Source: a phage
DNA length: 64,000 bases
Strand: one strand, 5' to 3'
Sequence record: NC_100371.1
The notes under the pieces were generated by a model. That model worked only from the letters and a program-made list of their open reading frames with translations. It did no database searches and was not told the DNA's origin. The position numbers were made by a program, and so were the translations under genes. Numbering within the stretch: the first letter of the stretch is position 1; each line of letters opens with the position of its first letter. Below are positions 11,009 through 53,100 of the stretch, one piece after another.

Positions 11009-11067
11009 CGTTTGGTGTTCTCCTTATCTTGTGTGAAGAGTAGACCTACCCTTCGATATTTTAAATA

Positions 11068-12411
11068 TTACTCTAAATCTTCTTCTGAGTCAAGCTTATC
11101 TTTCATAACTAAGTTCGGGGCAAGTTTGTAATAGCGAAAGCCCCCGCCACCTTGCCAGTTTACAGATTTAGAAATACCACTTTGATCTTCGCCATCGATC
11201 ACTTTTTGCAAGCGCGGGATGATATGGGTATGACAATGATCACCTAACTCGACAGAGATCCAACGTCTTTTCATCTTGTGAGCTACAGCAGCAGTAGTTC
11301 CTGAACCGCCGAATGAATCCAAGACTAAATCTCCTTCTCGCGTACACATTTCGAAAATTCGCTTCAAAAGCGCTTCGGGCTTTTTTCCATTTTTGAAACT
11401 AACGCCGCCTTCATTTGCTATTCCATTCCAACTAATGTCGGTCCAAACATCAGTTATTAGTTCAGCAGGCTGCATCTCACCGTCAATTTCCAAAAGCCTA
11501 TTGGAATAAAAGACCATTTGCCTACCATTTGCGATATAAAAGCCTTCGACATCCTCATTTGGATGTACATAAACCTTATCCCTATCTTTCTTTGACTTCT
11601 CGATAGTTTCTTTTCTCTTTATTTTGGCACCACCACCAATTGCAACGGATTGAAATACACGTTCTGCATTATCAATTGCAAATTGTGCTAATTCATCATC
11701 AAATGTATCAGGAAGTTTTTTCTTGGCTTCTTTTGCATCCTTATATCCATTGGCCTTTGCAAACGCATCGGCAATACCGCACCACGTCCAACTTTTATAA
11801 TGGTCATCTGGGTTTAATAGATATTTGTTATATCCCGTATCATACTCTTTAGGTATATAGATTTTGTTAAGTGGTTTCTTGGTACGATCTTTTGCATATA
11901 CAAGCAAAAAGTTTGCTGTGGAGAAAACTGTAGTTCCTGTTGCCTTAAAGCCTGAAGGGCAATTTGTAGTCATCGATATGGTATTTAACTGATTTGCACG
12001 ACCAAAAATCTCGTCCATCAAGACTTTTAAATAAGCCATTTCGCAGTCATCTAAGTGAACGAATATCACTCCATCATCGCTTAGCAGATTACGAATTATT
12101 TCTAATCTGTCCCGCATTAAGCCCAGCCAAAGGGAGTGCTCCAGGCTATCATCGTAGTGCTCAAAATCCCTTCCGGTATTGAATGGCGGGTCTATGTAAA
12201 CACACTTCACTTTGCCTGCATACTCTTGCTCTAGTGCCTTCAATGCCAGTAAGTTATCTCCAAAAATCAGTTTATTATCAAAAATATCGTTTTCGGTCAC
12301 CTTTTTACTGGCGTGATAAGACTTGCTCGAATCTTCTAACAAAATGTGAGGCTCTAGCTTTTTGCGCTCGTTCTTACCTATCCAGGTAAGTTCTAATTTG
12401 GTTTTACTCAT
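11068..12411 (-). CDS. DNA methyltransferase, beta-class N6-adenine/N4-cytosine (N6_N4_Mtase-like)
   Basis: 447 aa. Catalytic motif IV VYIDPPFNTG precedes SAM-binding motif I DSFGGSGTTAAVA (circular permutation typical of beta-class amino-MTases). AAGGAGAG RBS upstream. Confidence 0.85.
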   Translation of the reverse strand: MSKTKLELTWIGKNERKKLEPHILLEDSSKSYHASKKVTENDIFDNKLIFGDNLLALKALEQEYAGKVKCVYIDPPFNTGRDFEHYDDSLEHSLWLGLMRDRLEIIRNLLSDDGVIFVHLDDCEMAYLKVLMDEIFGRANQLNTISMTTNCPSGFKATGTTVFSTANFLLVYAKDRTKKPLNKIYIPKEYDTGYNKYLLNPDDHYKSWTWCGIADAFAKANGYKDAKEAKKKLPDTFDDELAQFAIDNAERVFQSVAIGGGAKIKRKETIEKSKKDRDKVYVHPNEDVEGFYIANGRQMVFYSNRLLEIDGEMQPAELITDVWTDISWNGIANEGGVSFKNGKKPEALLKRIFEMCTREGDLVLDSFGGSGTTAAVAHKMKRRWISVELGDHCHTHIIPRLQKVIDGEDQSGISKSVNWQGGGGFRYYKLAPNLVMKDKLDSEEDLE

Positions 12412-12472: not shown

Positions 12473-12814
12473 CTACTCAAGGTCTTCAGAGTCAAGCTCA
12501 AAAAGAATCAAACTGTGCATGCCTGCAGAGAGATCAACACACCCTGCAACAATAAGGGTTTGATAGTAAGGTTCAGCACCCTCAATATCTTCGTTAAAAT
12601 CCACAACAAGGTAGTCACCTTTGTTAAAGGTGTATTTGTCCGATGTAAACGCAAAACCTGCCCAGTCCCCTACTGCAGGATCTTTATCAGTCACCTTTGT
12701 TAGCAGTAGATCTTTTTCACGAGATCTTTTAGTAAAATCGTGAATCACAACATCCTTCTCTTCAGGAGTCGGATTGCCACACACGTAGTTAACGATATTT
12801 CTCCACAAACTCAT
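12473..12814 (-). CDS. hypothetical protein (113 aa)
   Basis: Co-oriented ORF; ATGA overlap with the upstream gene. Confidence 0.45.
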   Translation of the reverse strand: MSLWRNIVNYVCGNPTPEEKDVVIHDFTKRSREKDLLLTKVTDKDPAVGDWAGFAFTSDKYTFNKGDYLVVDFNEDIEGAEPYYQTLIVAGCVDLSAGMHSLILFELDSEDLE

Positions 12815-13458: not shown

Positions 13459-14179
13459 TCATCACCTCCTCTGCTTGCTTATTGGTGGCACAGATGGTCA
13501 AGGCATCTGTTGGGACACCACCATGATAGCAACGAGTGTTAAGCTCTGCTACAACCTCTTTTATGCGACGACCTTCACGAACACAGTTCAACATTGTGGC
13601 GAAGCGAACAGATTCCTGACGGAACTGGTCTACTAATGCTATGTTGTGAAGATTAAGATCCTCCCAAGATTCTGTATAGCAACACAGATCTGTGTGGTAG
13701 AAGTTGAAGTAGGCTTCTTTCTCCATAGAAGAGACAACTGGAGGTGCTTGGTAGAAATCTCCAAACAATAACACCTGAATGCCTCCGAAAGGTTTGTCAT
13801 TTTTCCGAAGAAAGCGGAGTTTTCTATCCATCTCTATGAACTTGTCAGCACGGATCATAGAGATTTCATCGATAATCAGGATGGTAAATGCCTTGCTTTT
13901 CAGAGGCTTTGCTGTTTTTGCCCTTATTGCTGTCCAGTCTGACTCCATGCTCACACCTGCGGCAAGATCGAAAGTTCGGTGCGCTGTTGCTCCATTAACG
14001 TTTAAAGCGGCTACCCCTGTCGGGGCAACCGTTATGCAAGAGTCTCCATACATGGACTGGATCATGTTGATAAGATATGTCTTCCCGGTTCCACCAGGTC
14101 CACTTACGAAGACATTCTCACCGCTCATGATTGCAACAAGGGCAGCATCTGTGCCTACATCGTACTGCCCTTTTTCCAT
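13448..14179 (-). pseudogene. Pif1/RecD/Dda-like SF1B helicase, N-terminal part
   Basis: Walker A GPGGTGKT, motif II LIIDEISM, motif III LLFGDFYQAPPV; ends ...ATNKQAEEVMTFL and continues in another frame as the C-terminal part. Confidence 0.7.
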
Positions 14180-15420
14180 TACGCCTCCTCGTAGATAATG
14201 TCGATAGTATTACCGTCGCGGTCAACCACGTACTCAATTGGGTCGCCATCTTTGCGCGATTCTGGAGCTACTACGATTTCGTAGCGGCATGCACGGCACT
14301 TGGCGCTGTTGTGTTGGTAAGGTACACTAACTACATCAGCAGGGTCAACCATAACCGTCATCACAGTTCCGTAGCTCTTTGCATACTCTTTGCTGGCACA
14401 GTGCAGGCCATAAGAGCATGCAGCTTCCGGATCATCCTCTACAAAGTTACGAGGCATGGATACAAAAGCCCCCTGGTATTGTGGGACTTTACCACTGTGC
14501 CAATCCACCCACTTGTCGCCGTTAAACTGAACCCCTTTGTAGCAAATGATTCGACCATCTTCTGCAATCTGAATGTCGTTTGCCTGCATAAAATCGTAGA
14601 GCATGTTTACAGATTTTGCAGAAGGATTGCGTAGCAGGCGAACGAGGAATTTCACATAGCGGTCATCCAGTGTTCCGTCTGCATAATCTTTCTCAATTTT
14701 CTTTGCAATGGTGGATCGCATCTCTACACCGTAGTAGTAGAGCTTACCATCTTTCATGATCAGGTTGTCTGCAAGTGTGGTGAACTCATTCTTGCGTTCC
14801 AGCCAGACAAGGATTTCACCAATTGCCTCGTCATATTCCTGAACAGAGATATGGTCGAAGACTTTCTGGTAAACTTCCTCACTTTCACTGCGGCGAATTT
14901 CAAAAATACCTTCGTTGCAGGTGATCTGGAGGAGTTCCCCGCAAATAACCACCAAAGGCTCGATGCTTCGGGTCTGTTGCTGAGACACACTGCTCACCAC
15001 CTCCAGCACCGGGTCTTTGACTTCTACTAAAGGTTCTTCTGACTTGATTGCTACCCCAGTGAACCCTACACCGTGAACAACACACAGCGGATATACCACG
15101 CCCCAACGTTTAACGGAACCTTCGCCTAAGTCTAAGATCATGGCGTACTTACCGTTATCTTCCAGCCCATATCGAAATAAACGGGCCTCTTCACGGGTTT
15201 CAAAATCCTCACGGGTGTAGCAGACGCTGTCACGGTCAGGATCGAACAACTCTGGGGCACCTACTGCCAGTGTCCAGGTTGTGTTACCTTTCTCAATAGC
15301 GCATGTGAAACCCTTCTTCTCAAGCTCTGCACGGCGGTCACGTGCTTCTTTACGAGTTTTGAAATGTTCGTAGATGAAAATCATCTTGGTCTCCTTATTT
15401 GATGTTATTCTTTGTATCAA
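14179..15420 (-). CDS. hypothetical protein with two N-terminal ~45-aa repeats
   Basis: 413 aa; repeated F-x-TR-x-EAR-x(4)-LE-x(2)-G motif (IFIYEHFKTRKEARDRRAELEKKG / YTREDFETREEARLFRYGLEDNG). Overlaps the GHKL gene by 26 nt. Confidence 0.5.
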   Translation of the reverse strand: MIQRITSNKETKMIFIYEHFKTRKEARDRRAELEKKGFTCAIEKGNTTWTLAVGAPELFDPDRDSVCYTREDFETREEARLFRYGLEDNGKYAMILDLGEGSVKRWGVVYPLCVVHGVGFTGVAIKSEEPLVEVKDPVLEVVSSVSQQQTRSIEPLVVICGELLQITCNEGIFEIRRSESEEVYQKVFDHISVQEYDEAIGEILVWLERKNEFTTLADNLIMKDGKLYYYGVEMRSTIAKKIEKDYADGTLDDRYVKFLVRLLRNPSAKSVNMLYDFMQANDIQIAEDGRIICYKGVQFNGDKWVDWHSGKVPQYQGAFVSMPRNFVEDDPEAACSYGLHCASKEYAKSYGTVMTVMVDPADVVSVPYQHNSAKCRACRYEIVVAPESRKDGDPIEYVVDRDGNTIDIIYEEA

Positions 15421-17377
15421 TCAGTTCACGGTATTCAATCATAGCAGGAGTGTCCCAATATTTCAAGCCTACATGCTTCAAAAGTGGATATTTCTTTTCC
15501 AATCTTGCAATATAGGCCTTCCCGCACTTAACCCGGTTGGCGATTAAGATTTTGGCACGATGATTTAGCTCACCGTACTTCCACGTGGTGCTACCTTCCC
15601 ACTTGTGGAAATGTGGCCGATAACTTCCAAAATCCTGCATGGGGATAATTTTACCTAACTGTCTGTACAGGTTGTCATATGAAGTTTCATTTGCTGCGCG
15701 AGTTAGTAAGAATTTCCAAGCATCCTCTTTCAACAAATGTTCCACATTCTTCTCTGTAACATATTGGCAATCAGGATCAGTCCAAAGCAGACGAGATTCC
15801 GACACCAGGTACAGATCTTCCCCTTCAGGAATCTGGAGTGCCGCACGCACACGGTCATAATCTTGCTGGTAGATGTTGCTCATCTGCCCTAGCCAACAAC
15901 TTCCGCGTTGGATATCCCCCTCATACGGTATGCAGTGCTTAATCTTCCTGAACTCTGCCTTAGTAATACGCTCACGCCGGAAGTAACCATCCTTCTCAAG
16001 TTTTTTAACCCAATAGCCTGGTTCGTAACGGGTTTTGGTTTCACCTTTCTTCGTAGGTCGGCGTGGAAGCTCCGATAACAATTTGACCGTATCTGCAAAA
16101 AACGGATGGTGTGCCGCCTCTTTAAACTCTTTCACCAGATCCGTGTTACGGCAATAGAAAACGTTGCGTCCGGTAATCTCGCTTAAGTAGTTACACTTAT
16201 TCCGGTTATATTTGCCGTCTCCGTCGTTAAATACTAAATAAACTCCCCGTAAGAATTCTACCTTTCCGTAGCAGGCGTAACCTATGCGGCCTTTATTTAA
16301 GCCGCCAGCGAAGATCTCGCAGTCCCCCAAATTTCCTAGCCCTGTTTCTTCCCAGCGGTCATACATAAAATTCTTACCGAAGATGTGCCCGAACACTCCA
16401 CTGTTCTTCATCATCTCGCGTGCTTCTGAGGATGTTTTTGCTGTCTCCAGTTCTGCAACAACTTCTGCTCCACGAAGGCGAATGCCTTCTTTGACAAAAG
16501 CTTCCAAACGCTCTTGGAATCCACCATCGTCGTGACCTTCTATGGTCCATTCACGCCCTGGGTTAATATTGCAATCTCCGATAGGGATCTCTACACAAAT
16601 TGCAGGATAATCTATTAGTGTCTCCAGGAACTTAGAACGGTAAGGTTGGTGACCCATTACCACACGACTCTCGTCAGAGCTGGTATAACCCTTCAGGATG
16701 GTCATCTTCCAACCATCTTTTTCATAATAATACTGCGCCTCTACTTTGTCTCCCTCCAGCATCTTGCTCGTCATCGGGTCGGTGACAGTGAACGGAAATT
16801 TTGCATAGCGCAGGCATGATGCAATAGCGGTGCGATATTTCAGAACATGCTCTTTCTTAACATGAAACTGAACTTTTACCCCGTTGTGCTCTTCAGTCTT
16901 CCGCTCACGGATCTTGGTGACATTTGGGATACCCTGGTCCAAGAACAATAGGTATGTGCTTTCCACACCGTTGTGCACACTGATTACATCGAAAGTGTCC
17001 ACCATGCTGAACGGGGCCTTTGAACCAACACCTTTATTGCCTACCAGAGCGTTGCTGTTGCGCTTGGTCGACTCACCGAGGTTCATGAAAGTGTTACGGA
17101 CCATCTCTTCTGACATGCCTAATCCAACGTCCTGCACAAAGAAGTATGGTTCAAGGTCTGTAGGAGAGTGAATGATGATCGGAACATCACCCCGTCCAGA
17201 CTCAACATGGGAGTCCACAGCATTGAAGATCGGTTCACGGCAGCTTGCCAGTACCTTATCTTCATAAATCCCTTTGATGATTAGCCCAAAAGTCTCTTTG
17301 TTCAGAGAAATTGATCCCCTGGTTACCTCCATATTCCCAGTTAGCACCGCTTTAGTTTCATTGCTGTTTACAATCAT
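15395..17377 (-). CDS. GHKL-superfamily ATPase (Hsp90/MORC-like ATP-binding domain) with ~450-aa C-terminal region of unknown function
   Basis: 660 aa. N-terminal Bergerat-fold motifs: REPIFNAVDS (N box), DVGLGMSEEM (G1), GNKGVGSKAPF (G2). Confidence 0.65.
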   Translation of the reverse strand: MIVNSNETKAVLTGNMEVTRGSISLNKETFGLIIKGIYEDKVLASCREPIFNAVDSHVESGRGDVPIIIHSPTDLEPYFFVQDVGLGMSEEMVRNTFMNLGESTKRNSNALVGNKGVGSKAPFSMVDTFDVISVHNGVESTYLLFLDQGIPNVTKIRERKTEEHNGVKVQFHVKKEHVLKYRTAIASCLRYAKFPFTVTDPMTSKMLEGDKVEAQYYYEKDGWKMTILKGYTSSDESRVVMGHQPYRSKFLETLIDYPAICVEIPIGDCNINPGREWTIEGHDDGGFQERLEAFVKEGIRLRGAEVVAELETAKTSSEAREMMKNSGVFGHIFGKNFMYDRWEETGLGNLGDCEIFAGGLNKGRIGYACYGKVEFLRGVYLVFNDGDGKYNRNKCNYLSEITGRNVFYCRNTDLVKEFKEAAHHPFFADTVKLLSELPRRPTKKGETKTRYEPGYWVKKLEKDGYFRRERITKAEFRKIKHCIPYEGDIQRGSCWLGQMSNIYQQDYDRVRAALQIPEGEDLYLVSESRLLWTDPDCQYVTEKNVEHLLKEDAWKFLLTRAANETSYDNLYRQLGKIIPMQDFGSYRPHFHKWEGSTTWKYGELNHRAKILIANRVKCGKAYIARLEKKYPLLKHVGLKYWDTPAMIEYRELIDTKNNIK

Positions 17378-17874
17378 TTATTGCGCTCCTTGTAGTAGAT
17401 ATGACTCCCGAATTGAGCTGTCCTCTGCATCTTTTTTGCCCATTTCGGTCGTACTTTTGTTGTATGGTAGTGTGTTGCTCCACCTGTTATATCCATAGCC
17501 ATGTATGCAACATGGTTGTTATTATAAACCTTTAGAAGCATCTTTGCAAGACTTTTAGCGTGATCCCATGAATCTTTTTCTGTCACCTTAAAAGTTTTGC
17601 CGTGGTTTGTCCACGAAAACTGGTTAGGTTGGTAGACAATCTTTCTTATAGTGTCTGGGTATTTGGGGTGAGATTTCCTGTTTAGTGTGGCAAATCCGGA
17701 TGCCAGCATCCCCATCGTGCCATCCCCTCTAGCCTCCCTGTAGATATTGCATGCTAGAATGTTTTCCTTAGTATCCGACGGCTTGCAAGTGTGATATACT
17801 TTTTGTTTTGGTGCTGCAACAACAGGCAGCGATAAAAATGCGCTCAAAATAATAGCAAAGATTTTAATTTTCAC
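17374..17874 (-). CDS. secreted SleB/CwlJ-family cell-wall hydrolase (candidate signal-peptide endolysin)
   Basis: 166 aa, GTG start with GGAG RBS. N-terminal signal-peptide-like MKIKIFAIILSAFLSLPVVAAP; SleB/CwlJ signature ACNIYREARGDG ... LNR ... QPNQFSW. Confidence 0.75.
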   Translation of the reverse strand: MKIKIFAIILSAFLSLPVVAAPKQKVYHTCKPSDTKENILACNIYREARGDGTMGMLASGFATLNRKSHPKYPDTIRKIVYQPNQFSWTNHGKTFKVTEKDSWDHAKSLAKMLLKVYNNNHVAYMAMDITGGATHYHTTKVRPKWAKKMQRTAQFGSHIYYKERNK

Positions 17875-17894
17875 AATAGCTCCAAATAGAAAAT

Positions 17895-17910
17895 CCCCGC
17901 CGAAGCGGGG
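17895..17910 (-). terminator. intrinsic terminator (UUCG-loop hairpin)
   Basis: Minus-strand RNA CCCCGC-UUCG-GCGGGG followed by AUUUUCUAUUU; same 16-mer as at 44316-44331. Confidence 0.55.
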
Positions 17911-17923
17911 TGTGTCTTAGAAA

Positions 17924-18304
17924 TTAATCGTAGTGTGCCAAAATCTCTCCATCGTTGCAAGTCCCCTCTACGAAGTTGTGAAGATTCATGCATTCATCTT
18001 GATAGAAGAATTTACCGCTTTTCAGCCGTAGACCAAACAACTCCGCATCTCCACGATGGCAAGCCTCTACAAGTTCATAGATTTCATACGGTAATTCCCC
18101 ATCGTCATGGAAGAACCCCGCTTTATCGTTGACATAGATGAAGAAATAGTCACTGCTGTCGCAAGCGTCCAGTATTTTAAACCAGATTTCATCCACATCT
18201 TTTTCTCGGATATCGATCACACAAGTGGAGCTGCATTCGTACTCCTTCTCCGGCTCCTCGGTCAATACCACTAGGTAGTTTCCCCGCTTACCTACTTTAG
18301 CCAT
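17924..18304 (-). CDS. hypothetical protein (126 aa)
   Basis: Co-oriented ORF followed by a terminator hairpin. Confidence 0.45.
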   Translation of the reverse strand: MAKVGKRGNYLVVLTEEPEKEYECSSTCVIDIREKDVDEIWFKILDACDSSDYFFIYVNDKAGFFHDDGELPYEIYELVEACHRGDAELFGLRLKSGKFFYQDECMNLHNFVEGTCNDGEILAHYD

Positions 18305-18313
18305 ACAACCTCC

Positions 18314-19498
18314 TCAAGCTTTAGCTAAAATGGCGCTAAACTCTTCACCAAACTCTTTTACAATCTTCATCAGGTTTGGGTATGCTTTGATCAGCTGAGC
18401 AACGATCTTGTCCCTGCCTTTACCAATAAGTAAGGCATTTCCTAAGGCGTTAGGTTTCATCATCGCCATAAAGACTGAGAATACAAAGTCTCGGTTCTCA
18501 TCCTTGAAATTTTCCCAAAGGAAATCAAGGAAGTTTGCCACACAGCTGACGAGATCTTCGTCGGAGATACTTGCATTTTCCATCATATTACGAATAGCGA
18601 TACAACCTTCAGACCCCAGAATCCACAAGATGTCTGGCTGCTTAGGACCTACATATTCTTTGCAGCCTCCTGCCATAATCCGACCGATTTCTGGCAAGTT
18701 TCGTTTCTTGGTGTGGTAGGTCCAAATTTCTACCGCTGCAGTGTGACCAATTGCACCTTGTAGAAGGACACGGGCCATAGCGTCAGAAATAATACCGCTG
18801 TCAAAATCGTGCAGGATGTCAGATGCAGCAACCCAAGATCGCGGTGTAGCAAAAGATGGACAATTAATCTCAGCCATGGCCTCATAATTATCGATGGCTG
18901 ATGGGACTCTTTTCAGATATCCAATTACCGAGGAGTGCACCCCATTAAGGAATGCATAGTCCTCAATAAACACCTCTGCACTGCTTGTAACTTCTACAAT
19001 GATAAAGCGGTTAGCTAGAGGAGCTTCGAGCGCCGAAAGAACAGCACCGTCTGTAGCACGGTTACCTGCAGCTACAAAAACAGAGCCCTTAGGAAATGCA
19101 TAGGTGCCGCACTTGTGGTCGAGCATAATTTGCATTGCAACCTTCTGCAGGTAGTTATCTGCATGAGTAAGCTCATCTAGAAAGATAATTCCGCTCCAGT
19201 CCGGATCTGCAGGCCAAAATTCTGGAATTGCAAACACTGTGCGTGTAGTCCCATCCGACTCTACAGGGATAGGTAGCCCAGATAAGTCAGCAGGATCTTT
19301 ATCTGACAACCGCACGTCAACCAGGTTGTCATCTCGCTCACCGAACATATTATCAGCAATCTGCTTCATCACCTGGCTCTTCCCCACGCCCATCGGTCCT
19401 AAAATCAGGACAGATCGGTTATGACGCTGGGCAAATTGAATAATAGCTGGCAACTCGCGGACAGTGATTTGACCACTTTCGAATACGTTTCTTGACAT
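18314..19498 (-). CDS. MoxR-family AAA+ ATPase (AAA_5; CobS/RavA-like)
   Basis: 394 aa. Walker A ILGPMGVGKS, Walker B IIFLDELTHA, sensor/arginine region AAGNRATDG ... ANRF typical of MoxR/CobS AAA+ proteins. Confidence 0.8.
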   Translation of the reverse strand: MSRNVFESGQITVRELPAIIQFAQRHNRSVLILGPMGVGKSQVMKQIADNMFGERDDNLVDVRLSDKDPADLSGLPIPVESDGTTRTVFAIPEFWPADPDWSGIIFLDELTHADNYLQKVAMQIMLDHKCGTYAFPKGSVFVAAGNRATDGAVLSALEAPLANRFIIVEVTSSAEVFIEDYAFLNGVHSSVIGYLKRVPSAIDNYEAMAEINCPSFATPRSWVAASDILHDFDSGIISDAMARVLLQGAIGHTAAVEIWTYHTKKRNLPEIGRIMAGGCKEYVGPKQPDILWILGSEGCIAIRNMMENASISDEDLVSCVANFLDFLWENFKDENRDFVFSVFMAMMKPNALGNALLIGKGRDKIVAQLIKAYPNLMKIVKEFGEEFSAILAKA

Positions 19499-19767
19499 TA
19501 GTAAAAGTCCTCTACTTGTGTGTAAGTGTTTTCAAAGTTTTCCAAAACAGACATCACATCGGATCTGTCAATATCATACGCAACTCTCCAGCCATATGCA
19601 ACCCTTTCTGCTGTTGCCTCTTCTGGCGCTAGTCGTCTGCTGGCATAAAAGAGTGTTGGAGTACACTTTCTTGCTTGCCCTCTAACTTTCCCATAATAAT
19701 ATCTGTGAATATCTTTGTCAAAATTTAATTCTTTTTCTGCACGAAGTTCGTACTGCTGGTATAACAT
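19498..19767 (-). CDS. hypothetical protein (89 aa)
   Basis: Co-oriented ORF; 1-nt overlap with the MoxR gene. Confidence 0.4.
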   Translation of the reverse strand: MLYQQYELRAEKELNFDKDIHRYYYGKVRGQARKCTPTLFYASRRLAPEEATAERVAYGWRVAYDIDRSDVMSVLENFENTYTQVEDFY

Positions 19768-19811
19768 CTCTACTGCTCCTTAAGCAGCATCCTTGCCGCC
19801 ATCCCTACCCA

Positions 19812-20192
19812 CTAAAATGCAGTCCGAATCCAGACAAGGTTCTTATCTGCCCAATCATAGAGGCAAGTCATTGCACTATTGAATTGCTCACACGGAGGAT
19901 AATCTTCTTCCATCTTGCGCATAGCAGAGCCTTGTGGGTAAAGCTCCCGTGCTGCAAACCACGCGTCGTAGTCATCAACGGTATCGAAGTAGTATACAAC
20001 ATCCTCCAACTCAGGATCGAACTTTGAACTATCAGGATCCAGCCGTTCAGGGAACTTGGAGCGTAACTTGCCAGCCACAATACTTGCCAACTCGCTAACA
20101 TGTTTGTTGTCCCACTCTACCAGTTTCCCGTCTTCAGTTATGCGTCCTAACCACTGATCATGAAGGTCAACTGTTGTCTTCCACTGGGCCAT
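19812..20192 (-). CDS. hypothetical protein (126 aa)
   Basis: Co-oriented ORF. Confidence 0.45.
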   Translation of the reverse strand: MAQWKTTVDLHDQWLGRITEDGKLVEWDNKHVSELASIVAGKLRSKFPERLDPDSSKFDPELEDVVYYFDTVDDYDAWFAARELYPQGSAMRKMEEDYPPCEQFNSAMTCLYDWADKNLVWIRTAF

Positions 20193-22035: not shown

Positions 22036-22064
22036 ACTATATCGTGGATTTAGAGTAAAGTCAA
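22036..22064 (-). promoter_or_regulatory. sigma70-type promoter, leftward (-35 TTGACT, 17-nt spacer, -10 TATAGT)
   Basis: Read on minus strand: TTGACT-N17-TATAGT in the divergent intergenic region upstream of gene 21096..21995. Confidence 0.6.
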
Positions 22065-32100: not shown

Positions 32101-32883
32101 CTGACGTTGAGGGTACCCTGTCGATTGGTTAAACCACTGATTACAAGAGTAATCTCTCATATAGTCATAATCAGAGTATTTGTTTGCATCTTCGTTCCAA
32201 CACATATTTAGGTTGGTACCGCCCATGCACACAATGTATTCTGCGATATACTTATCGCTTCTGGTAGGAATACCTATGAACCATCTATTAACAGGCTCAT
32301 CCCAAGCTGTGCGCTCATCTTTAACGCAGATAGCAATCCAGTCATGTGTTCCTGTTTTCTTGCATACATCTCGCTTCATACCGTAGTAGAACTCTTTAGT
32401 ATTCGGCTCAGGTGCATTTATCAGGTAACTCCATGCCTGATTTGCATAAGTTCCATTGGTTCGCGGGTCATGATCAAAGGCATACATGATGATCCTTTCC
32501 CCACCAAGATGTTCGCCAAGAGTAACTTTGACATTCACATCGCCGTAACCATTGCGAACAACATCCATATTATCAATAGAGATGCCCCTAGGGGTGTAGG
32601 CAATTTTCAGAGAGCTATCTTCACTGGTGCCTCCAAGTGTAATCCCTATGTTGTTTGTTGTCCCGTCGGCATATCTTACTGTGGCTTCCCAGCGTATTCC
32701 GAAATATCCTGCATCATGGCTGACAATTTTCAGTGTACGAGCACCTGGGTGAGGTTTTCCAGGATCAGGCCAAGGGTCTGGGTGTTCGTGGACAGTCAAC
32801 GACGTTCCGTTTTGCTCGTTAACCTGCAACATTTTACCGCCTCTGCCGTTAGGGTTGAACTCCCATACGGCCTGTGTCTGCAC
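29149..32883 (-). CDS. large virion-associated protein with C-terminal Big_2-like Ig domain (putative distal fibre/adhesin)
   Basis: 1244 aa; last gene of the tail operon. Ig-like Big_2-type segment (ITPSNVSGIRKTWESSNTNIATVYATTGLVTFKAPGNVTIKFVATDDAGRKTSSTSFTV). Confidence 0.55.
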   Translation of the reverse strand: MQTQAVWEFNPNGRGGKMLQVNEQNGTSLTVHEHPDPWPDPGKPHPGARTLKIVSHDAGYFGIRWEATVRYADGTTNNIGITLGGTSEDSSLKIAYTPRGISIDNMDVVRNGYGDVNVKVTLGEHLGGERIIMYAFDHDPRTNGTYANQAWSYLINAPEPNTKEFYYGMKRDVCKKTGTHDWIAICVKDERTAWDEPVNRWFIGIPTRSDKYIAEYIVCMGGTNLNMCWNEDANKYSDYDYMRDYSCNQWFNQSTGYPQRQARVNPAIFTDTQVFLTKQANEVQTFKNKYDPNKWFYNCYGAFFWGPGELPNGGSCFEAATYASDRFMGQVKKYKIIPGPETLGNAVDPYIIMTALRSNMDGTSISMQVPVTNGYKRVVMIIKCDLIGKQVLAENGTSTHLFETALHYQFADSPFAGDKRISDTDNTRCKKFMLGGGWWWYEFDLTDKFTDTSKVVTGLRLDLGENMHKSVCDGTYGDPTIYLKYVSFEHPEDVVYGPKLRLFGSWIAKDRVGMGKKVRGFLVDAGTEDMLVNAVWPELPGTQWDNSAKSINWFNIHRAMWTTNCYLWKELNDGAFGFTGGRRMAIICWTTLQRCYDHDYEIGGRAWKNIRDRIITNFADPNGGGAYGFDCSRLIHLNGSSAYKKEGYSGSMIEWGLVKDARVLMGQQLAAAIGPNAVQSVKPAWFDIPIWSSGTPGTAAINPTTGDLEISWEDLKQVGGWDKTGYQVQWWRSDGSLAADEFVKDNFYTMSSAKAQQLFGQATPSTITMSMCCKDNRTGALGPRVAKVFSGIKWNLPVQSVSWKQIGDNKLLVTPACQFNATLNVDPAVAANSAKASDFSVSNTAMADVRKIDTLNARITCKNTYGTFQIINNFTDADSKVVRTASQTMQLGTLAYSALITEQSPTLQGGGVGKLITTPVWKPNEWVVFDLTVDFSSDNNWTWVRNCLSQLMGGPSSVSDSHDSTDPSVFQVGKTHPETGETLPDRKYALVCISYGKADVTFSGTHAYNGTYNFSRKYSLKAGNIIDEVGALYNPGNGIGIVGGKLQMQEPSITPSNVSGIRKTWESSNTNIATVYATTGLVTFKAPGNVTIKFVATDDAGRKTSSTSFTVKQMTPQWRMWIGTATNGAYPNPAGTSGMKTFATSKPMEYGSGPKVGQMVYFGAYIPEIIGLPRSQLQLLFGAGVDDLATFGYSDNIEAARSSGWVGFRMESGKEGRILGTASIGVMFPGDQQYRLGAYATFSL

Positions 32884-37997: not shown

Positions 37998-38312
37998 TTA
38001 CCTTTTACTATGCTCTACAAGCATGTGCAAAATCTTTTGTACATCAGCTCGGATACCGGAGACATCTGTCCTGACATCTTGCTTAAGGTCGTTAATATCG
38101 GCCTCTAGCTTACTTAACCGGGTCTCGATAATGGAATCAAGTCTATCTTTTGTAACCATGCTATTTTTCACTAAAATGAGGTCTTTCTCCAGCTCATCCA
38201 ACCTCTTGGAAATGCCTTTCCATTTGGTGTGCCACTGGTTGAAAGCCCATACACAGATCGGGACAACGGTACCCATGCAGATACCGTACAATGCCGCCAA
38301 ATCCAACTCCAC
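37998..38312 (-). CDS. membrane-anchored coiled-coil protein (104 aa)
   Basis: N-terminal hydrophobic segment LAALYGICMGTVVPICVWAF followed by charged helical region. Confidence 0.45.
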   Translation of the reverse strand: MELDLAALYGICMGTVVPICVWAFNQWHTKWKGISKRLDELEKDLILVKNSMVTKDRLDSIIETRLSKLEADINDLKQDVRTDVSGIRADVQKILHMLVEHSKR

Positions 38313-49840: not shown

Positions 49841-49854
49841 CAATACTTTATACT

Positions 49855-50187
49855 TTAAAGTGCTTCCAAGGTAGATACTGATGGGTCGAACATGTTCAAC
49901 CTTATCGGATCTACAATTTTTCCGCTTTTAGAGATGATATTTTCTGCATCTTCGTCCAGAGCCAGAACGTTGACATAAAACAATTTACTTTTCTCGCAAA
50001 CTGGGTAGACAACCATGTTGCCAAACTCATCCTCGGCCTCATAAGTGTCTTCAGTTTCTGTGTAAATGAACCCGACAACCTCTACAAGAAGGGTGTTTTG
50101 CAACACCTCATTCTCGTAAAAGCCGATTTCGTCCATGAAACCGTTAAAATCCTCCCTACCAGTAAACCCAAGGGTAAAAGTATTCAT
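49855..50187 (-). CDS. hypothetical protein (110 aa), possible fibre chaperone
   Basis: Start overlaps the stop of the 1479-aa fibre gene; acidic. Confidence 0.4.
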   Translation of the reverse strand: MNTFTLGFTGREDFNGFMDEIGFYENEVLQNTLLVEVVGFIYTETEDTYEAEDEFGNMVVYPVCEKSKLFYVNVLALDEDAENIISKSGKIVDPIRLNMFDPSVSTLEAL

Positions 50188-53100
50188 TATTCAACACTCT
50201 CCATCATAAGCTGGGTGTCGGTCAATGCAGAGTTCCAAACTCTTACATCTTTAATATGACCAAACAAATGTCTTTCACCTGTCGCCGTTTGACCTCCGAG
50301 ACGGATGAGAGCGCCTCCTGCCAGGAATTCCCAAGAAGATTGCGTTTCCGTACTCACCAATCCGTTAGCAAAAGAGCAGGTTTTACCGTCATCTTTTATC
50401 CTGAACCCAATTTTCAATTTACGTGTTTTAGCCATCTCATAGACACGTCTGTTTGAACCGCCAATATCACAATATGGATAACCATCTTCTGCAATATTTG
50501 CTGCAGAGCCAAATCCCATGATAAATGCAGCACCGTATTGGTGGCCCTCTGTATCAATAACTCTAGGAGCTGCGTTAGGAGCTTTTCCCCAACCTCTCCA
50601 GTTGGCATCCACCGTAGCGGCGATGGTGAACGGTCTAGGTGCTAAATTATCAGTCATTGGGAATTTACAAAGGTCTGCTGCCCTAGTCACTGGTGAAGAC
50701 CCTGTAGGGATAAACGAGGACTCACAAGATCCTAACTCGAACTGAGGTATTGCGACGTCAACCCAATCCCCTACGGCATGTTGAGAACCATCCGGTGGGG
50801 CAATCTGGAACTGGCACCCAATATTCATGTCAGAGTCCACTGCCTCAAACGTAGCAACAACTCTTATCCAAGCAGGTCCGGCTGTTTGCCATCTCTCAGC
50901 TTTTACTTTAATTCTCCCAGCTGCAACACCTGTTGTTTTAACTTCAAGTGTTGACAGGTTAACATAGGCATCACCTTGGAATACTGTGGTGGATCCGTTA
51001 TACATGTCAAATCTTACACGCAGTCTCTGGTGAGCTTTACCACCTCTTGCAATAATAGACCCAGTACAAAATTTCTCAGCACCTGTTACATCTGCACCAC
51101 GGGTGGCTGGAACTGTAGCCAGGTTTAACGCTGTTGTTTCTACACCGGATACGTTGCTTACTGTAAATCTTGCACCTTTTGTGCCGTTGGTGTTTGTTAC
51201 AGTGTTACCGACCGTAATCTGTGACTGGGCTCCCCATTTGCTCGGATCTTCACTGTTAAGCATCAGATTTGTCCTTTGACCTTCAATGAGCAGACCATCT
51301 CTTTCGAAACGTGGTTGGTTTGCCTGTGCAACAGCCATGACACCGCGCTTAGTGAAATAGGTTGCGGTAGAAGGTCTGGAGAAGATCATCTCCCCCTCAC
51401 CTAACACAGGTTTCAGGTTAGAGGTTAAAGGTAGCCACAGATCTGGCATAACTGGGGCAGTTGTACTTTCTGGGAAGCTAGTTCTCTTCCAAGGGCTCCA
51501 GTTCATTCCACTGCCAGTGTTATTATAATACCTTTCCCACGTTCCACCAAGATACATTTTATATATCTGGACACACCCTGTACCCTCGTTGGCAGAGTTT
51601 CTAAGCACGATAAGCGTACCAGCCATCTGCTGTCCTGGTGGGTAGTGTCTCTCCGCTGTGGCGTTGGCATTTGCCTCTTGATGGTAAATACCTTCGCGAT
51701 CCGCTTTGTAATCGTTAAGGTCGCTAGTTCCCAACCCTTGTCCACGGTGCTGAATAACTTTGTTCCACGCTCTGTGGTTACCCTGCTCTATGGAACGGGT
51801 GTACAGCTGATCTAAACGACCTGCCATCTGGAAAGCATAGTTTCCAGAAAATGCCACAGACAACCCACCAACAACCATTGAACCTTCAGGCCCGTTGACG
51901 TTGCCAGCCAGTATTTTGGACGGATTATTATTTCCGAACTGGTTGTTCCAGTCTGCACCTGTGTGGCATACAAAACCACCTGGGGCCGAGAAAGTACCGT
52001 CTTTGTTGAAATTGTAGAATCTGTGAGCTGTGCCAACAACATCGCGAACAATAACTTGACCCGCTTCTGGAGTAGATCTGAACTCTGCCTGACCTTTGAG
52101 ACCAGCACCATTGCCGCATTTAGAGGTAAATGTGCCGTTAGTCAGATCCTCTGTCCCATCTGATGCACACTGGAATCCTGCATTAGAGAATAACGCCTTT
52201 CTAGGACTGCTGTAGCACAAATAGTCAATACCGTCTGCCCATAGCTCGACTTTCGGCATGTTCATTTTGCTCATCACTGCATAGCGTTCAGCAGTGCCTA
52301 TATAGTGCCACTGTGTGCCGCCGCCAGTGTAGAACCCAGAAGTACCTTTGAAGTCAACAATAGGTCTGGTGTTTGTATTGTTATCTCCAAGAACAGCAAG
52401 ATTCAAGTCTGCCGACTGGAGAGGTGAAACGAACTTAACACCGTCCTGATTGTTTGTTACAGAGCCGACCTGATAATCTTGCTCTCTGGTAAACACTTCG
52501 ACAACATTTCTACTTGCGTATATGCTAACAGGGAAAGCACGAGCCTCTACATAGAAAGCAACATACTCTTGTTTACCCCTTGTTGGAGCAACCATCCCAA
52601 GAATTGCTTTTTCATTCTGGTAGAAATTTACTACCCCGTAGAAAGAGTCTCCTCTGTCTGTCCAACCACCAGTTCTATAGTGACACTGCAAGGTGGCGCA
52701 GTTCATAGGGTCACCGCCAGATGAAGATCTGGTAACTATGGTAATATCAGTGCCAGTTGCTGGAGCATAGTACGGATCTGTTCTGACGATGATCGGGTAG
52801 TATTTCCCATCTTCCATTCCTGCGGTTCTTGGCAGTGTTAAGAAGTCTTTTACACCTGCTGCTATAGGAACTTTGAACAGATTCTGAGCATCTGCTAAAG
52901 TTGTAGCCCCAGTGCCGCCTGCGGCTTGAGGTAAAGGTTCCCACTTGGCCTTCCGGTTGTTATACACACCCCATTCCAGAGTGCCGTTACCGGATTCATC
53001 CATCCCTCCATCCCAAACGACCATTTTTGCGGCTTTCTTGGATCCCCAGAACCCTCTTTCTGCTCCTGAACTACGGATCCATTCCCCAAGTCCCCAGTTT

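Follow-up and report, generated by a model that had tools for sequence, protein, structure and literature searches.

A SleB/CwlJ-type hydrolase with a predicted export signal beside rIIA of an rV5-like coliphage, a candidate accessory muralytic enzyme

Introduction

Within the 64-kb window considered here (the whole stretch of phage DNA analysed, to which all coordinates refer), a first-pass annotation singled out a small protein as a secreted SleB/CwlJ-type cell-wall hydrolase and candidate endolysin, serving either a holin-independent or signal-anchor-release (SAR)-like lysis route or acting as a virion or secreted effector. The locus thus raises the question of whether this protein is an exported peptidoglycan hydrolase and, if so, what part it plays in lysis.

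The window is Vequintavirus DNA (from an rV5-like coliphage), and the protein is orthologous to rV5 gp2 ('cell wall hydrolase'). The same gene is represented by Vequintavirinae orthologs CB7_83, CR3_087, CR8_090 and 4MG_270, and the likeness to rV5 gp2 extends to length (166 aa), domain (PF07486), adjacency to rIIA and the same terminator, t003, upstream. It is therefore a gene already known: its annotation dates back to the rV5 genome paper, and a 2020 paper independently noted a signal peptide on the Certrevirus ortholog CB7_83, reported homologues of CB7_83 in every Vequintavirinae genus, described CB7_83 as toxic when expressed in E. coli (data not shown there) and cited CR3_087 as having been linked to host lysis. 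In the literature we found no biochemical or genetic test of a SleB-type hydrolase from a phage of Gram-negative hosts. New here are the terminator ~20 nt before the GTG start, the ATGA overlap with rIIA and the presence, in sister genera, of a gene for a protein with two transmembrane domains (TMDs) at the position that rIIA holds in this phage.

Results

A SleB/CwlJ-family hydrolase

The features of the gene itself are as follows.

17374..17874, minus strand: SleB/CwlJ-family hydrolase coding sequence, 166 aa (open reading frame list, PF07486, PHROG 938, SleB PDB matches)
17880..17883, minus strand: Shine-Dalgarno sequence GGAG, 5 nt 5' of the GTG start (read from the sequence)
17734..17736, minus strand: GAG codon of Glu47, the predicted catalytic glutamate (aligned with the Glu of SleB 'YGESRGE')

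The open reading frame was recovered at exactly the coordinates originally claimed for it, and we add its strand, which had not been given. Translation starts with GTG at 17872..17874; the next in-frame methionine (M54) lies beyond the catalytic glutamate, so that the GTG is the sole start giving a functional hydrolase.

Family membership, including the SleB/CwlJ motif read earlier from the sequence, was borne out by matches far beyond chance. The protein scored 70.4 bits against Pfam Hydrolase_2 (PF07486; cut-off 27, E = 2.1e-19, profile positions 2-100 of 100), matched PHROG 938 'endolysin' at E = 1.7e-27 and, by phmmer, matched the SleB crystal structures 4F55/4FET at E = 2.5e-6, with NIYREARGDG located at residues 43-52, NR at 65-66 and QFSW at 85-88. 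An AF2 model (pLDDT 88.4, with low values for residues 1-20) found SleB catalytic domains as its only PDB matches (4F55 and 4FET; probability 1.00, target-normalised TM 0.72-0.79). A word-indexed homologue search returned 10 matches, and the family alignment was taken from an exhaustive search; across its 161 relatives E47, R66, QFSW, H137, W145 and H158 vary little or not at all, E47 being unchanged in all 159 aligned relatives. The corresponding glutamate of SleB 'YGESRGE' is, we take it from the published SleB structures, the catalytic residue.

The hydrolase shares with Bacillus SleB (4F55, 4FET) and CwlJ the catalytic-domain fold and the glutamate within a Y-x-E-[AS]-R-G motif, but it is only 21-24% identical to SleB and has a single Pfam domain, with a predicted signal peptide at the N-terminus and no N-terminal PG_binding_1 domain. 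It also differs from SleB in belonging to a branch of didermal bacteria and their phages (each of the best 80 cellular relatives comes from a didermal bacterium) and in carrying a clade-specific cysteine pair. Muramic-delta-lactam is the specificity determinant of SleB and is lacking in the E. coli wall; since Bacillus SleB needs it, the substrate and cleaved bond of the phage enzyme are uncertain. Since solved structures of SleB have been described as those of lytic transglycosylases, the many 'amidase' annotations of this protein are probably mistaken.

Predicted export signal and cysteine pair

Two features of the N-terminal part bear on localization.

17815..17874, minus strand: predicted Sec signal peptide, codons 1-20 (hydropathy, rule-based site, ortholog conservation)
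17749..17787, minus strand: Cys30 and Cys42, codons 30-42, predicted periplasmic disulfide (cysteine co-occurrence)

The hydrolase begins MKIK-IFAIILSAFLSLPVVA, followed by AP, and this signal-peptide-like sequence resolves into an n-region (MKIK, +2), an h-region (IFAIILSAFLSL) and a c-region (PVVA), with rule-based prediction placing cleavage after A20, between VVA and AP; a cut after A21 would put proline at +1 and is therefore disfavoured. The cleavable-looking signal peptide proposed in the first-pass annotation is thus upheld by the n/h/c layout and the Pro(-4)...V-x-A site, as a rule-based assignment. The hydrophobic core spans ~12-14 residues, is rich in Leu, Ile and Phe and lacks glycine, within an uncharged run of 18 residues (56% L/I/F/V/M/W, mean Kyte-Doolittle 2.29). 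A proline at -4 to -6 and a small-x-small site are kept in orthologs from Vequintavirus, Certrevirus, Seunavirus, Kashira and Phapecoctavirus despite sequence divergence, and a signal- or lipoprotein-type N-terminus was found in 132 of 160 relatives. Together with the family, domain and fold matches, the signal features support the view of the protein as a SleB/CwlJ-family peptidoglycan hydrolase bearing an N-terminal export signal.

As the criterion for a SAR domain we used a weakly hydrophobic, Gly/Ala/Ser-rich TMD of ~20 or more residues without a cleavage site. The short, strongly hydrophobic, Gly-free core and the conserved Pro(-4)...V-x-A site therefore point to a cleavable signal-peptidase-I signal and not a SAR domain, and the SAR-like reading first suggested finds no support in them.

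Cys30 and Cys42 are the only cysteines of the hydrolase. Cysteines form mutually exclusive pairs among the 161 family members, at positions 39 and 77 in 100 and at 30 and 42 in 28, with a lone cysteine in 4, a pattern that for the Cys30-Cys42 pair fits a periplasmic disulfide.

Gene context and expression

The surroundings of the gene, all read on the same strand, comprise the following features.

15395..17377, minus strand: rIIA homologue, 660 aa, directly downstream (PHROG 612, E = 2e-123; HATPase_c_3; rV5 gene 1)
14179..15384, minus strand: rIIB homologue, ~401 aa (PHROG 609, E = 1.6e-61; annotations in relatives)
17374..17377, minus strand: ATGA overlap of the hydrolase TGA stop and the rIIA ATG start (open reading frame coordinates and sequence)
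17884..17910, minus strand: intrinsic-terminator-like hairpin CCCCGC-TTCG-GCGGGG with a ATTTTCTATTT tail (terminator scan, RNA fold)
22036..22064, minus strand: sigma-70-type promoter, equivalent of rV5 P010 (2 mismatches to P010)

The gene had been described as sitting among replication genes and far from the structural module. Open reading frame positions in the window support its distance from the structural module, but the replication setting holds only further out, where a helicase, a methyltransferase and a polymerase are encoded; the immediate neighbours are rIIA and rIIB downstream and a hypothetical gene and a MoxR-type ATPase gene upstream. The order hydrolase-rIIA-rIIB-helicase is syntenic across genera, and the ATGA overlap makes translational coupling of hydrolase and rIIA possible. 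A real SPOR (wall-binding) domain in rIIB was considered and rejected, as the match falls below the Pfam threshold.

The terminator-like hairpin follows the stop of the preceding gene (17924) and precedes the weak GTG start of the hydrolase gene by ~20 nt. Its RNA fold reaches -18.9 kcal/mol (z = -3.2), and the identical terminator is listed for rV5 as t003 (-16.0 kcal/mol, Table S4). The P010 equivalent, for which 0 matches are expected by chance, is the proposed start of a leftward unit that includes the hydrolase gene, a suggestion underlain by the transcription-unit proposal for rV5. Within the region, matches resembling promoters are no commoner than in shuffled sequence, and no late-promoter motif was found between the hydrolase gene and P010. 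A literature search for Vequintavirus transcriptome data found none, the one paper naming the genus being concerned with the T5-like phage Bas33. Judged from the sequence, hydrolase production seems to be kept low by a strong terminator just upstream, a GTG start and placement in a sigma-70 early/middle unit.

Lysis genes in the window and in related phages

The earlier statement that no holin adjoins the gene is correct within the window: the flanking sequence, consisting of the hypothetical gene and terminator upstream and rIIA downstream, holds no small open reading frame with a transmembrane segment in any frame. The single other small membrane protein then recognized, at 37998..38312, is indeed one (an ortholog of the rV5 membrane protein gp31, with 1 TMD), but it is not the only one, as another small open reading frame, at 12473..12814, has a C-terminal transmembrane segment. 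Searched by tblastn with lambda R, the window gave nothing below E = 0.1.

A lambda-R-type lysozyme (rV5 gp89, PF00959) is encoded by relatives that share 90-99.7% identity with the window; in the relative Aya its gene lies outside the span of the window. LysECP26, a 98%-identical lysin of this type, has been purified and proved strongly lytic, as well as toxic when expressed. The same relatives encode gp129, a holin candidate with two TMDs, and, according to a 2020 paper, an Rz/Rz1 spanin pair adjoining terL. In the relatives gp89, gp129 and Rz/Rz1 are scattered instead of forming a contiguous cassette, and each of them maps beyond the limits of the 64-kb window; the gp89 gene adjoins that of a DNA ligase, and lysis genes in this phage group are dispersed among early and middle genes. 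An endolysin-holin cassette elsewhere in the genome had been named as the finding that would count against a signal-peptide endolysin, and this is largely what relatives present, with lysozyme, holin candidate and spanins, but as dispersed genes and not as a cassette. A sole, holin-independent lysis route by the hydrolase is thus unsupported, since relatives carry the gp89 lysozyme, gp129 and Rz/Rz1. The 50 kb of HMD-6 annotation checked for lysis genes was uninformative.

In Certrevirus, Seunavirus and Kashira, a holin-like small open reading frame with two hydrophobic segments overlaps the hydrolase gene or follows it by a few nucleotides, so that the adjacent holin-like gene missing here is found in CR8, 4MG and Kashira, in the exact position that rIIA occupies in our phage. 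Set against its Vequintavirinae orthologs, the hydrolase gene of the genus studied here lacks the adjacent two-TMD open reading frame, with rIIA abutting it instead, and otherwise shows no material difference. Searches for homologues of the CR8, 4MG and Kashira two-TMD open reading frames in the window or in Aya (tblastn, blastp) gave no significant match, and no relationship between gp129 and these proteins was detectable.

Proteins with at least 95% identity to the hydrolase occur in ~115 deposited phage genomes, with 99% identity in 71 deposited phage records, and the hydrolase is more tightly conserved in this respect than either the lysozyme or the holin candidate. More broadly, 1,336 deposited phage genomes encode SleB-type hydrolases, in many cases alongside a full conventional lysis set. 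A pairing of two lytic proteins, a Phage_lysozyme and a Hydrolase_2 in the early or regulatory region, is likewise seen in Phapecoctavirus, PVP-SE1-like phages and BME3. T5-like phages retain an early-region SleB-type gene next to a complete lysozyme-holin cassette; there the main lysin family differs, and the SleB-type proteins start at about residue 34 of our hydrolase and thus are without the signal.

With respect to virions, published mass spectrometry lists neither rV5 gp2 nor CB7_83 among the virion proteins (26 for CB7), and the PA5oct homologue is absent from the PA5oct virion proteome, leaving the virion effector first suggested unsupported. A Pfam survey for a virion lysin in the tail module returned only DUF6950, baseplate plug and Dit-like domains.

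Discussion

We propose, at roughly even odds (a probability of about 0.5), that the hydrolase is an exported accessory muralytic enzyme, second to a lambda-R-type lysozyme. The host Sec system would export the precursor and signal peptidase I would cut after Ala20, leaving a soluble, basic mature enzyme of ~146 aa that a Cys30-Cys42 disulfide may stabilize in the periplasm. Glu47 would serve to cleave the glycan backbone, most likely by lytic transglycosylation on the analogy of SleB. The main endolysin would be the lambda-R-type lysozyme encoded elsewhere in the genome, and the hydrolase would pre-position muralytic activity in the periplasm without a holin, adding to wall breakdown after the membrane-depolarizing step of lysis. 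A soluble, active lysin exported early would carry a risk of premature lysis, from which we infer some restraint, through low expression or membrane energization. A partial precedent exists in Lys44 of Oenococcus phage fOg44, reportedly a Sec-exported endolysin with a cleaved signal peptide. The resemblance lies in the predicted cleavable N-terminal signal, export independent of a holin and restraint until membrane depolarization, whereas Lys44 is of another catalytic family, and our protein has a Gram-negative host, a separate cytoplasmic lysozyme in its phage group and an export step that is predicted.

A link to lysis is indicated by the holin-like two-TMD gene directly after the hydrolase gene in sister genera, and the reported toxicity of CB7_83 in E. 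coli is a functional hint in the same direction. The sister-genus arrangement also lends something to a SAR-type endolysin, whose N-terminal tether is released when a pinholin depolarizes the membrane, as the coupling of a lysin to a small two-TMD protein recalls the R21/S21 and P1 Lyz systems, and the ortholog N-termini of CR8 and Kashira are more Ala/Ser-rich. We nevertheless hold this very unlikely for the present protein: its core is short and Gly-free (mean Kyte-Doolittle 2.3) and is followed by a conserved signal-peptidase site, its N-terminus is not Gly/Ala-rich, its fold is unrelated to known SAR endolysins, and no two-TMD gene is linked to it in this genus. Could it instead be the primary endolysin, delivered by Sec and alone setting lysis independently of a holin, with the lysozyme secondary? 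The signal peptide and muralytic family, the 'endolysin' label in PHROG and several GenBank records, the toxicity of CB7_83 and the citation of CR3_087 for host lysis would agree with this. It is unlikely, however, given that relatives encode a lambda-R-type lysin of which LysECP26 is strongly lytic, that a primary lysin would call for the reverse of terminator-attenuated, GTG-initiated expression, and that no regulator of an exported active lysin is apparent beside the gene in this genus. Small muralytic enzymes do sometimes ride in virions, but a virion-associated or injected lysin aiding genome entry is highly improbable, as rV5 gp2, CB7_83 and the PA5oct homologue are missing from virion proteomes, a Sec signal would be pointless for a cytoplasmically packaged protein, and the gene lies outside the structural module in an early leftward unit.

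More serious, though still held tentatively, is the possibility of an early periplasmic wall-remodelling enzyme with no role in lysis, which would be left to the separate lysozyme. Possible purposes are envelope change with the membrane-associated rIIA and rIIB, hindrance of superinfection, adjustment of cell shape or size for the burst and release of anhydromuropeptides. The sigma-70-driven leftward unit, with its want of a late-promoter motif up to P010, the overlap of the hydrolase stop with the rIIA start and the synteny through rIIB and helicase accord with such a role, as does the stronger conservation of the hydrolase relative to the lysis proteins. The full lysin, holin and spanin set of relatives and the retention by T5-like phages of an early-region SleB-type gene beside a lysozyme-holin pair mean that a non-lysis role fits equally well. 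On the other side stand the holin-like gene of the sister genera and the scatter of lysis genes among early and middle genes in any case, so that position says little on role. The hydrolase may still be a second, exported lysin, as we propose. A stronger form, in which the protein is not a lysin and is an early envelope-remodelling factor tied to rIIA/rIIB, within a module hydrolase-(small membrane protein)-rIIA-rIIB that edits the wall from the periplasm, appears doubtful; if true, it would give access to what the rII proteins do biochemically, which has long lacked an explanation. Should an exported hydrolase shape lysis timing or remodel the envelope early, it would add a component to the holin-endolysin-spanin scheme, in large coliphages of the kind used in therapy and biocontrol.

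A SleB/CwlJ-type hydrolase gene beside rIIA and rIIB

The first-pass annotation had recognised a SleB/CwlJ-type cell-wall hydrolase in the early region, and this observation was confirmed, while the interpretation attached to it was supported in part. The gene and its neighbours, all on the minus strand, are:

18314..19498, minus: MoxR-type ATPase, upstream of the hydrolase
17924..18304, minus: conserved hypothetical gene, upstream
17374..17874, minus: hydrolase ORF, 166 aa, GTG start (ORF call)
15395..17377, minus: rIIA, downstream (PHROG 612, E=2e-123)
14179..15384, minus: rIIB, downstream (PHROG 609, E=1.6e-61)
below 14179, minus: RecD-like helicase, then methyltransferase genes

The motifs originally quoted are present in the ORF, and the protein matched Pfam PF07486 (Hydrolase_2, SleB/CwlJ family; 70.4 bits, cut-off 27), PHROG 938 'endolysin' and Bacillus SleB catalytic domains in the PDB (E=2.5e-6). 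A structure search with its AlphaFold model (pLDDT 88.4) agreed, returning only SleB 4F55 and 4FET (probability 1.00, target TM 0.72-0.79). GGAG lies 5 nt upstream of the GTG, which we take as the functional start because the next in-frame Met (residue 54) falls past the catalytic motif. Within the family alignment, E47 aligned with the SleB glutamate and was invariant (159/159), with R66, N65, Q85-F-S-W88, H137, W145 and H158 invariant or nearly so. It is well established that muramic-delta-lactam, the SleB specificity determinant, is absent from the E. coli wall, and the substrate requirement of the hydrolase must therefore differ from that of SleB. Many phage annotations label the enzyme N-acetylmuramoyl-L-alanine amidase, but glycan-cleaving activity is more likely by analogy, because SleB is classed as a lytic transglycosylase in PDB entry 4FET.

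The gene had been placed among replication genes, which is only partly right because the rII genes are its nearest partners, with the helicase and methyltransferase genes further off; its stop codon and the start of rIIA overlap (ATGA). A strong terminator-like hairpin (CCCCGC-TTCG-GCGGGG with T-rich tail, 17910..17884, fold z = -3.2) separates the hydrolase GTG from the stop of the upstream gene (17924) and is identical to terminator t003 described by Kropinski et al. in the coliphage rV5. The same authors assigned rV5 gene 2, the hydrolase ortholog, to a leftward unit starting at the sigma-70-type promoter P010, and a P010-type promoter was found at 22036..22064 (minus). The rV5 late-promoter motif was enriched in the tail module, with no copy on the minus strand between P010 and the hydrolase gene, and no Vequintavirus transcriptome was found in the literature. 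The terminator directly upstream and the GTG start suggest, at the sequence level, low-level early or middle expression.

Several further features were observed at this locus. The minimum free energy fold of 17860..17935 (minus), a single-sequence prediction, paired the hydrolase Shine-Dalgarno and GTG with the flanks of the terminator hairpin, which could further dampen translation initiation. Near-consensus sigma-70-like sites occurred inside the hydrolase ORF (TTGCAA-17-TATAAT, 17521..17549, minus), where one could serve as an rIIA promoter independent of t003, and inside ORF 19498..19767 (TTGACA-17-TATTAT, 11/12, 19693..19721, minus), the count of promoter-like sites in the region being no higher than in shuffled sequence. 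Residues 8-42 of rIIB gave a sub-threshold Pfam match to the peptidoglycan-binding SPOR domain (19.3 bits, cut-off 21, E=0.0015) and some GenBank records label rIIB 'SPOR domain-containing'; such a match is curious so near a wall hydrolase, but no export signal is evident in rIIB.

Predicted export signal and periplasmic location

The hydrolase N-terminus comprises a basic n-region (MKIK), a strongly hydrophobic core of 12-14 residues (IFAIILSAFLSL) and a c-region P-V-V-A followed by A-P-K. By this rule-based assignment, a cut after A20 fits the -3/-1 rule, whilst one after A21 would leave a disfavoured Pro at +1. Five orthologous N-termini were compared, from another Vequintavirus-type sequence, Certrevirus CR8, Seunavirus 4MG, Serratia phage Kashira and Phapecoctavirus WPEC2. 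Their sequences have diverged, and each retains a Pro somewhere between -4 and -6, with a small-x-small site (SFA, ALA, VLA, SYA, VVA) followed by a charged mature end. The conserved cleavage site and the short, Gly-free core point to a cleavable Sec signal rather than a SAR domain. Signal-like N-termini were found in 121/160 relatives and lipoprotein-like ones in 11/160, with several of the remaining 28 borderline by a simple N-terminus score.

Cysteines in the 161-member family alignment fell almost exclusively into two mutually exclusive pairs, columns 39+77 (100/161) and 30+42 (28/161, including the hydrolase), and only four members had a lone Cys. Such a pattern would be expected of alternative disulfides in an oxidising compartment and supports the predicted periplasmic location. 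All of the 80 nearest cellular relatives (<=42% identity) came from didermal bacteria (Rhodobacterales, Pantoea/Mixta, Desulfobulbaceae and Chromatiales), with no spore formers among them.

Canonical lysis genes in relatives

No lambda-R-like lysozyme was detected in the window by tblastn with lambda R as the query (no hit below E=0.1). The window corresponds to 57.3-120.6 kb of the related phage Aya, whose lysozyme at 32.9-33.3 kb (PHROG 90) shares 63% identity with lambda R. It corresponds to rV5 gp89, called 'an obvious lysin' in the rV5 literature, and the 98%-identical LysECP26 lyses Gram-negative cells in purified form. Among the small proteins of Aya, just one with two TMDs and a charged tail is convincing (11011..11247, 78 aa); it corresponds to rV5 gp129, a proposed holin present in 115 phage records, and an Rz/Rz1 pair beside terL has been reported for rV5 (PMC7344957), corresponding to gp67/gp66. 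All these positions lie outside the window. A canonical lysis set thus speaks in substance against the hydrolase as a sole lysis route, although its genes are scattered and known from relatives only.

Other small proteins were noted. In OX460980.1, a 68-aa ORF (32602..32808, minus; rV5 gp90, PHROG 4641) lies directly downstream of the lambda-R-type lysozyme and has a signal- or lipoprotein-like N-terminus (MKDFLLAILFMVACLACGVVFAGE); it may represent a lysis accessory that has escaped recognition. Within the window, the ORF at 37998..38312 (minus), previously singled out as the only other small membrane protein, is the 104-aa rV5 gp31 ortholog (PHROG 5345), with one N-terminal TMD, located between the tail-fibre and tail-fibre-assembly genes and without a family match to a lysis protein. 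It is not alone: a conserved 113-aa ORF amid the methyltransferase and helicase genes (12473..12814, minus; PHROG 11869) carries one hydrophobic segment near its C-terminus (residues 87-105), making it a second small membrane-type protein of the early region.

Relatives and prior description

The phage behind the window is an rV5-like E. coli myovirus of the genus Vequintavirus. A 5-kb stretch around the hydrolase gene matched 122 phage records, with 99.7% identity to OX460980.1 and >99% to two other coliphages, and the protein is at least 99% identical in 71 records and 95-99% in 44 more. Across the genus it is more conserved than the lysozyme (mostly 90-95%) or the two-TMD holin candidate (mostly 80-90%). 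The window is mosaic relative to OX460980.1 (99.7% over 15000-20000, but 90-94% across aligned blocks), and ~1.9 kb (49846-51715) did not align. Records labelled 'Campylobacter phage' (MG065659.1, MG065644.1 and ~16-20 others; host Campylobacter jejuni) match rV5-like coliphages here at ~99% identity and carry the same lysozyme and holin-candidate genes, so that the host label looks doubtful.

As an annotation the hydrolase is not new, and its function is a predicted one: the 2013 rV5 listing gives gene 2 as 'cell wall hydrolase, 166 aa, PF07486', beside rIIA (gene 1). A signal peptide on the Certrevirus ortholog CB7_83 was described by Buttimer et al. 2020 (PMC7344957), who also reported that its expression is toxic to E. 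coli, found homologues in every genus of the Vequintavirinae and pointed out that the one in CR3 has been implicated in lysis; later papers describe 'two endolysins' (lysozyme and SleB-like hydrolase) in related phages. More widely, SleB-type homologues occurred in 1,336 phage records, and 11,334 cluster representatives matched (E up to 1e-3). In T5-like phages the early region holds a version lacking the signal, next to a lysozyme-holin pair. Judged from gene content, a SleB-type enzyme carried in addition to a conventional lysis set is a recurring pattern. [quoted passage not shown]

Proposed role and synteny with sister genera

We propose that the hydrolase would be exported by Sec, processed by signal peptidase and, disulfide-bonded, reside in the periplasm as a glycan-cleaving enzyme serving as an accessory lysin. 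This statement as a whole has a probability of roughly 0.5; its family and export features are, by themselves, very probably correct. The main rival, an early non-lytic role in envelope remodelling linked to rIIA/rIIB, is doubtful. Service as the primary endolysin is unlikely, as is that of a SAR endolysin given the N-terminus described. A virion lysin, the effector role also suggested earlier, is unlikely too: rV5 gp2 is absent from the proteins reported by rV5 virion MS, CB7_83 from the 26 CB7 virion proteins and the PA5oct homologue from PA5oct virions, and a Sec signal would be senseless on a protein packaged in the cytoplasm.

The genes that follow the SleB-type gene were compared across genera, a comparison that is new here; in each of the three sister phages the first ORF listed has two hydrophobic segments:

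CR8 (Certrevirus): 62-aa ORF, a further small ORF, helicase
Kashira: 80-aa ORF (charged tail), helicase
4MG (Seunavirus): 57-aa ORF (charged tail), rIIA, rIIB, helicase
This window (Vequintavirus): rIIA, rIIB, helicase

This first ORF and the hydrolase stop overlap in CR8 and Kashira, and in 4MG a few nucleotides separate them; the CB7 equivalent of the ORF has been proposed as a class II holin (Buttimer et al., PMC7344957). Among the genera compared, Vequintavirus alone has lost this small membrane gene at this position, and searches of the window and Aya by tblastn and blastp gave no significant hit to a related ORF. The pairing of an exported lysin with a small two-TMD protein in the sister genera resembles the logic of SAR-endolysin/pinholin pairs. 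This synteny is the best indirect evidence on the question and suggests, by analogy, that the SleB-type enzyme had an ancestral role in lysis.
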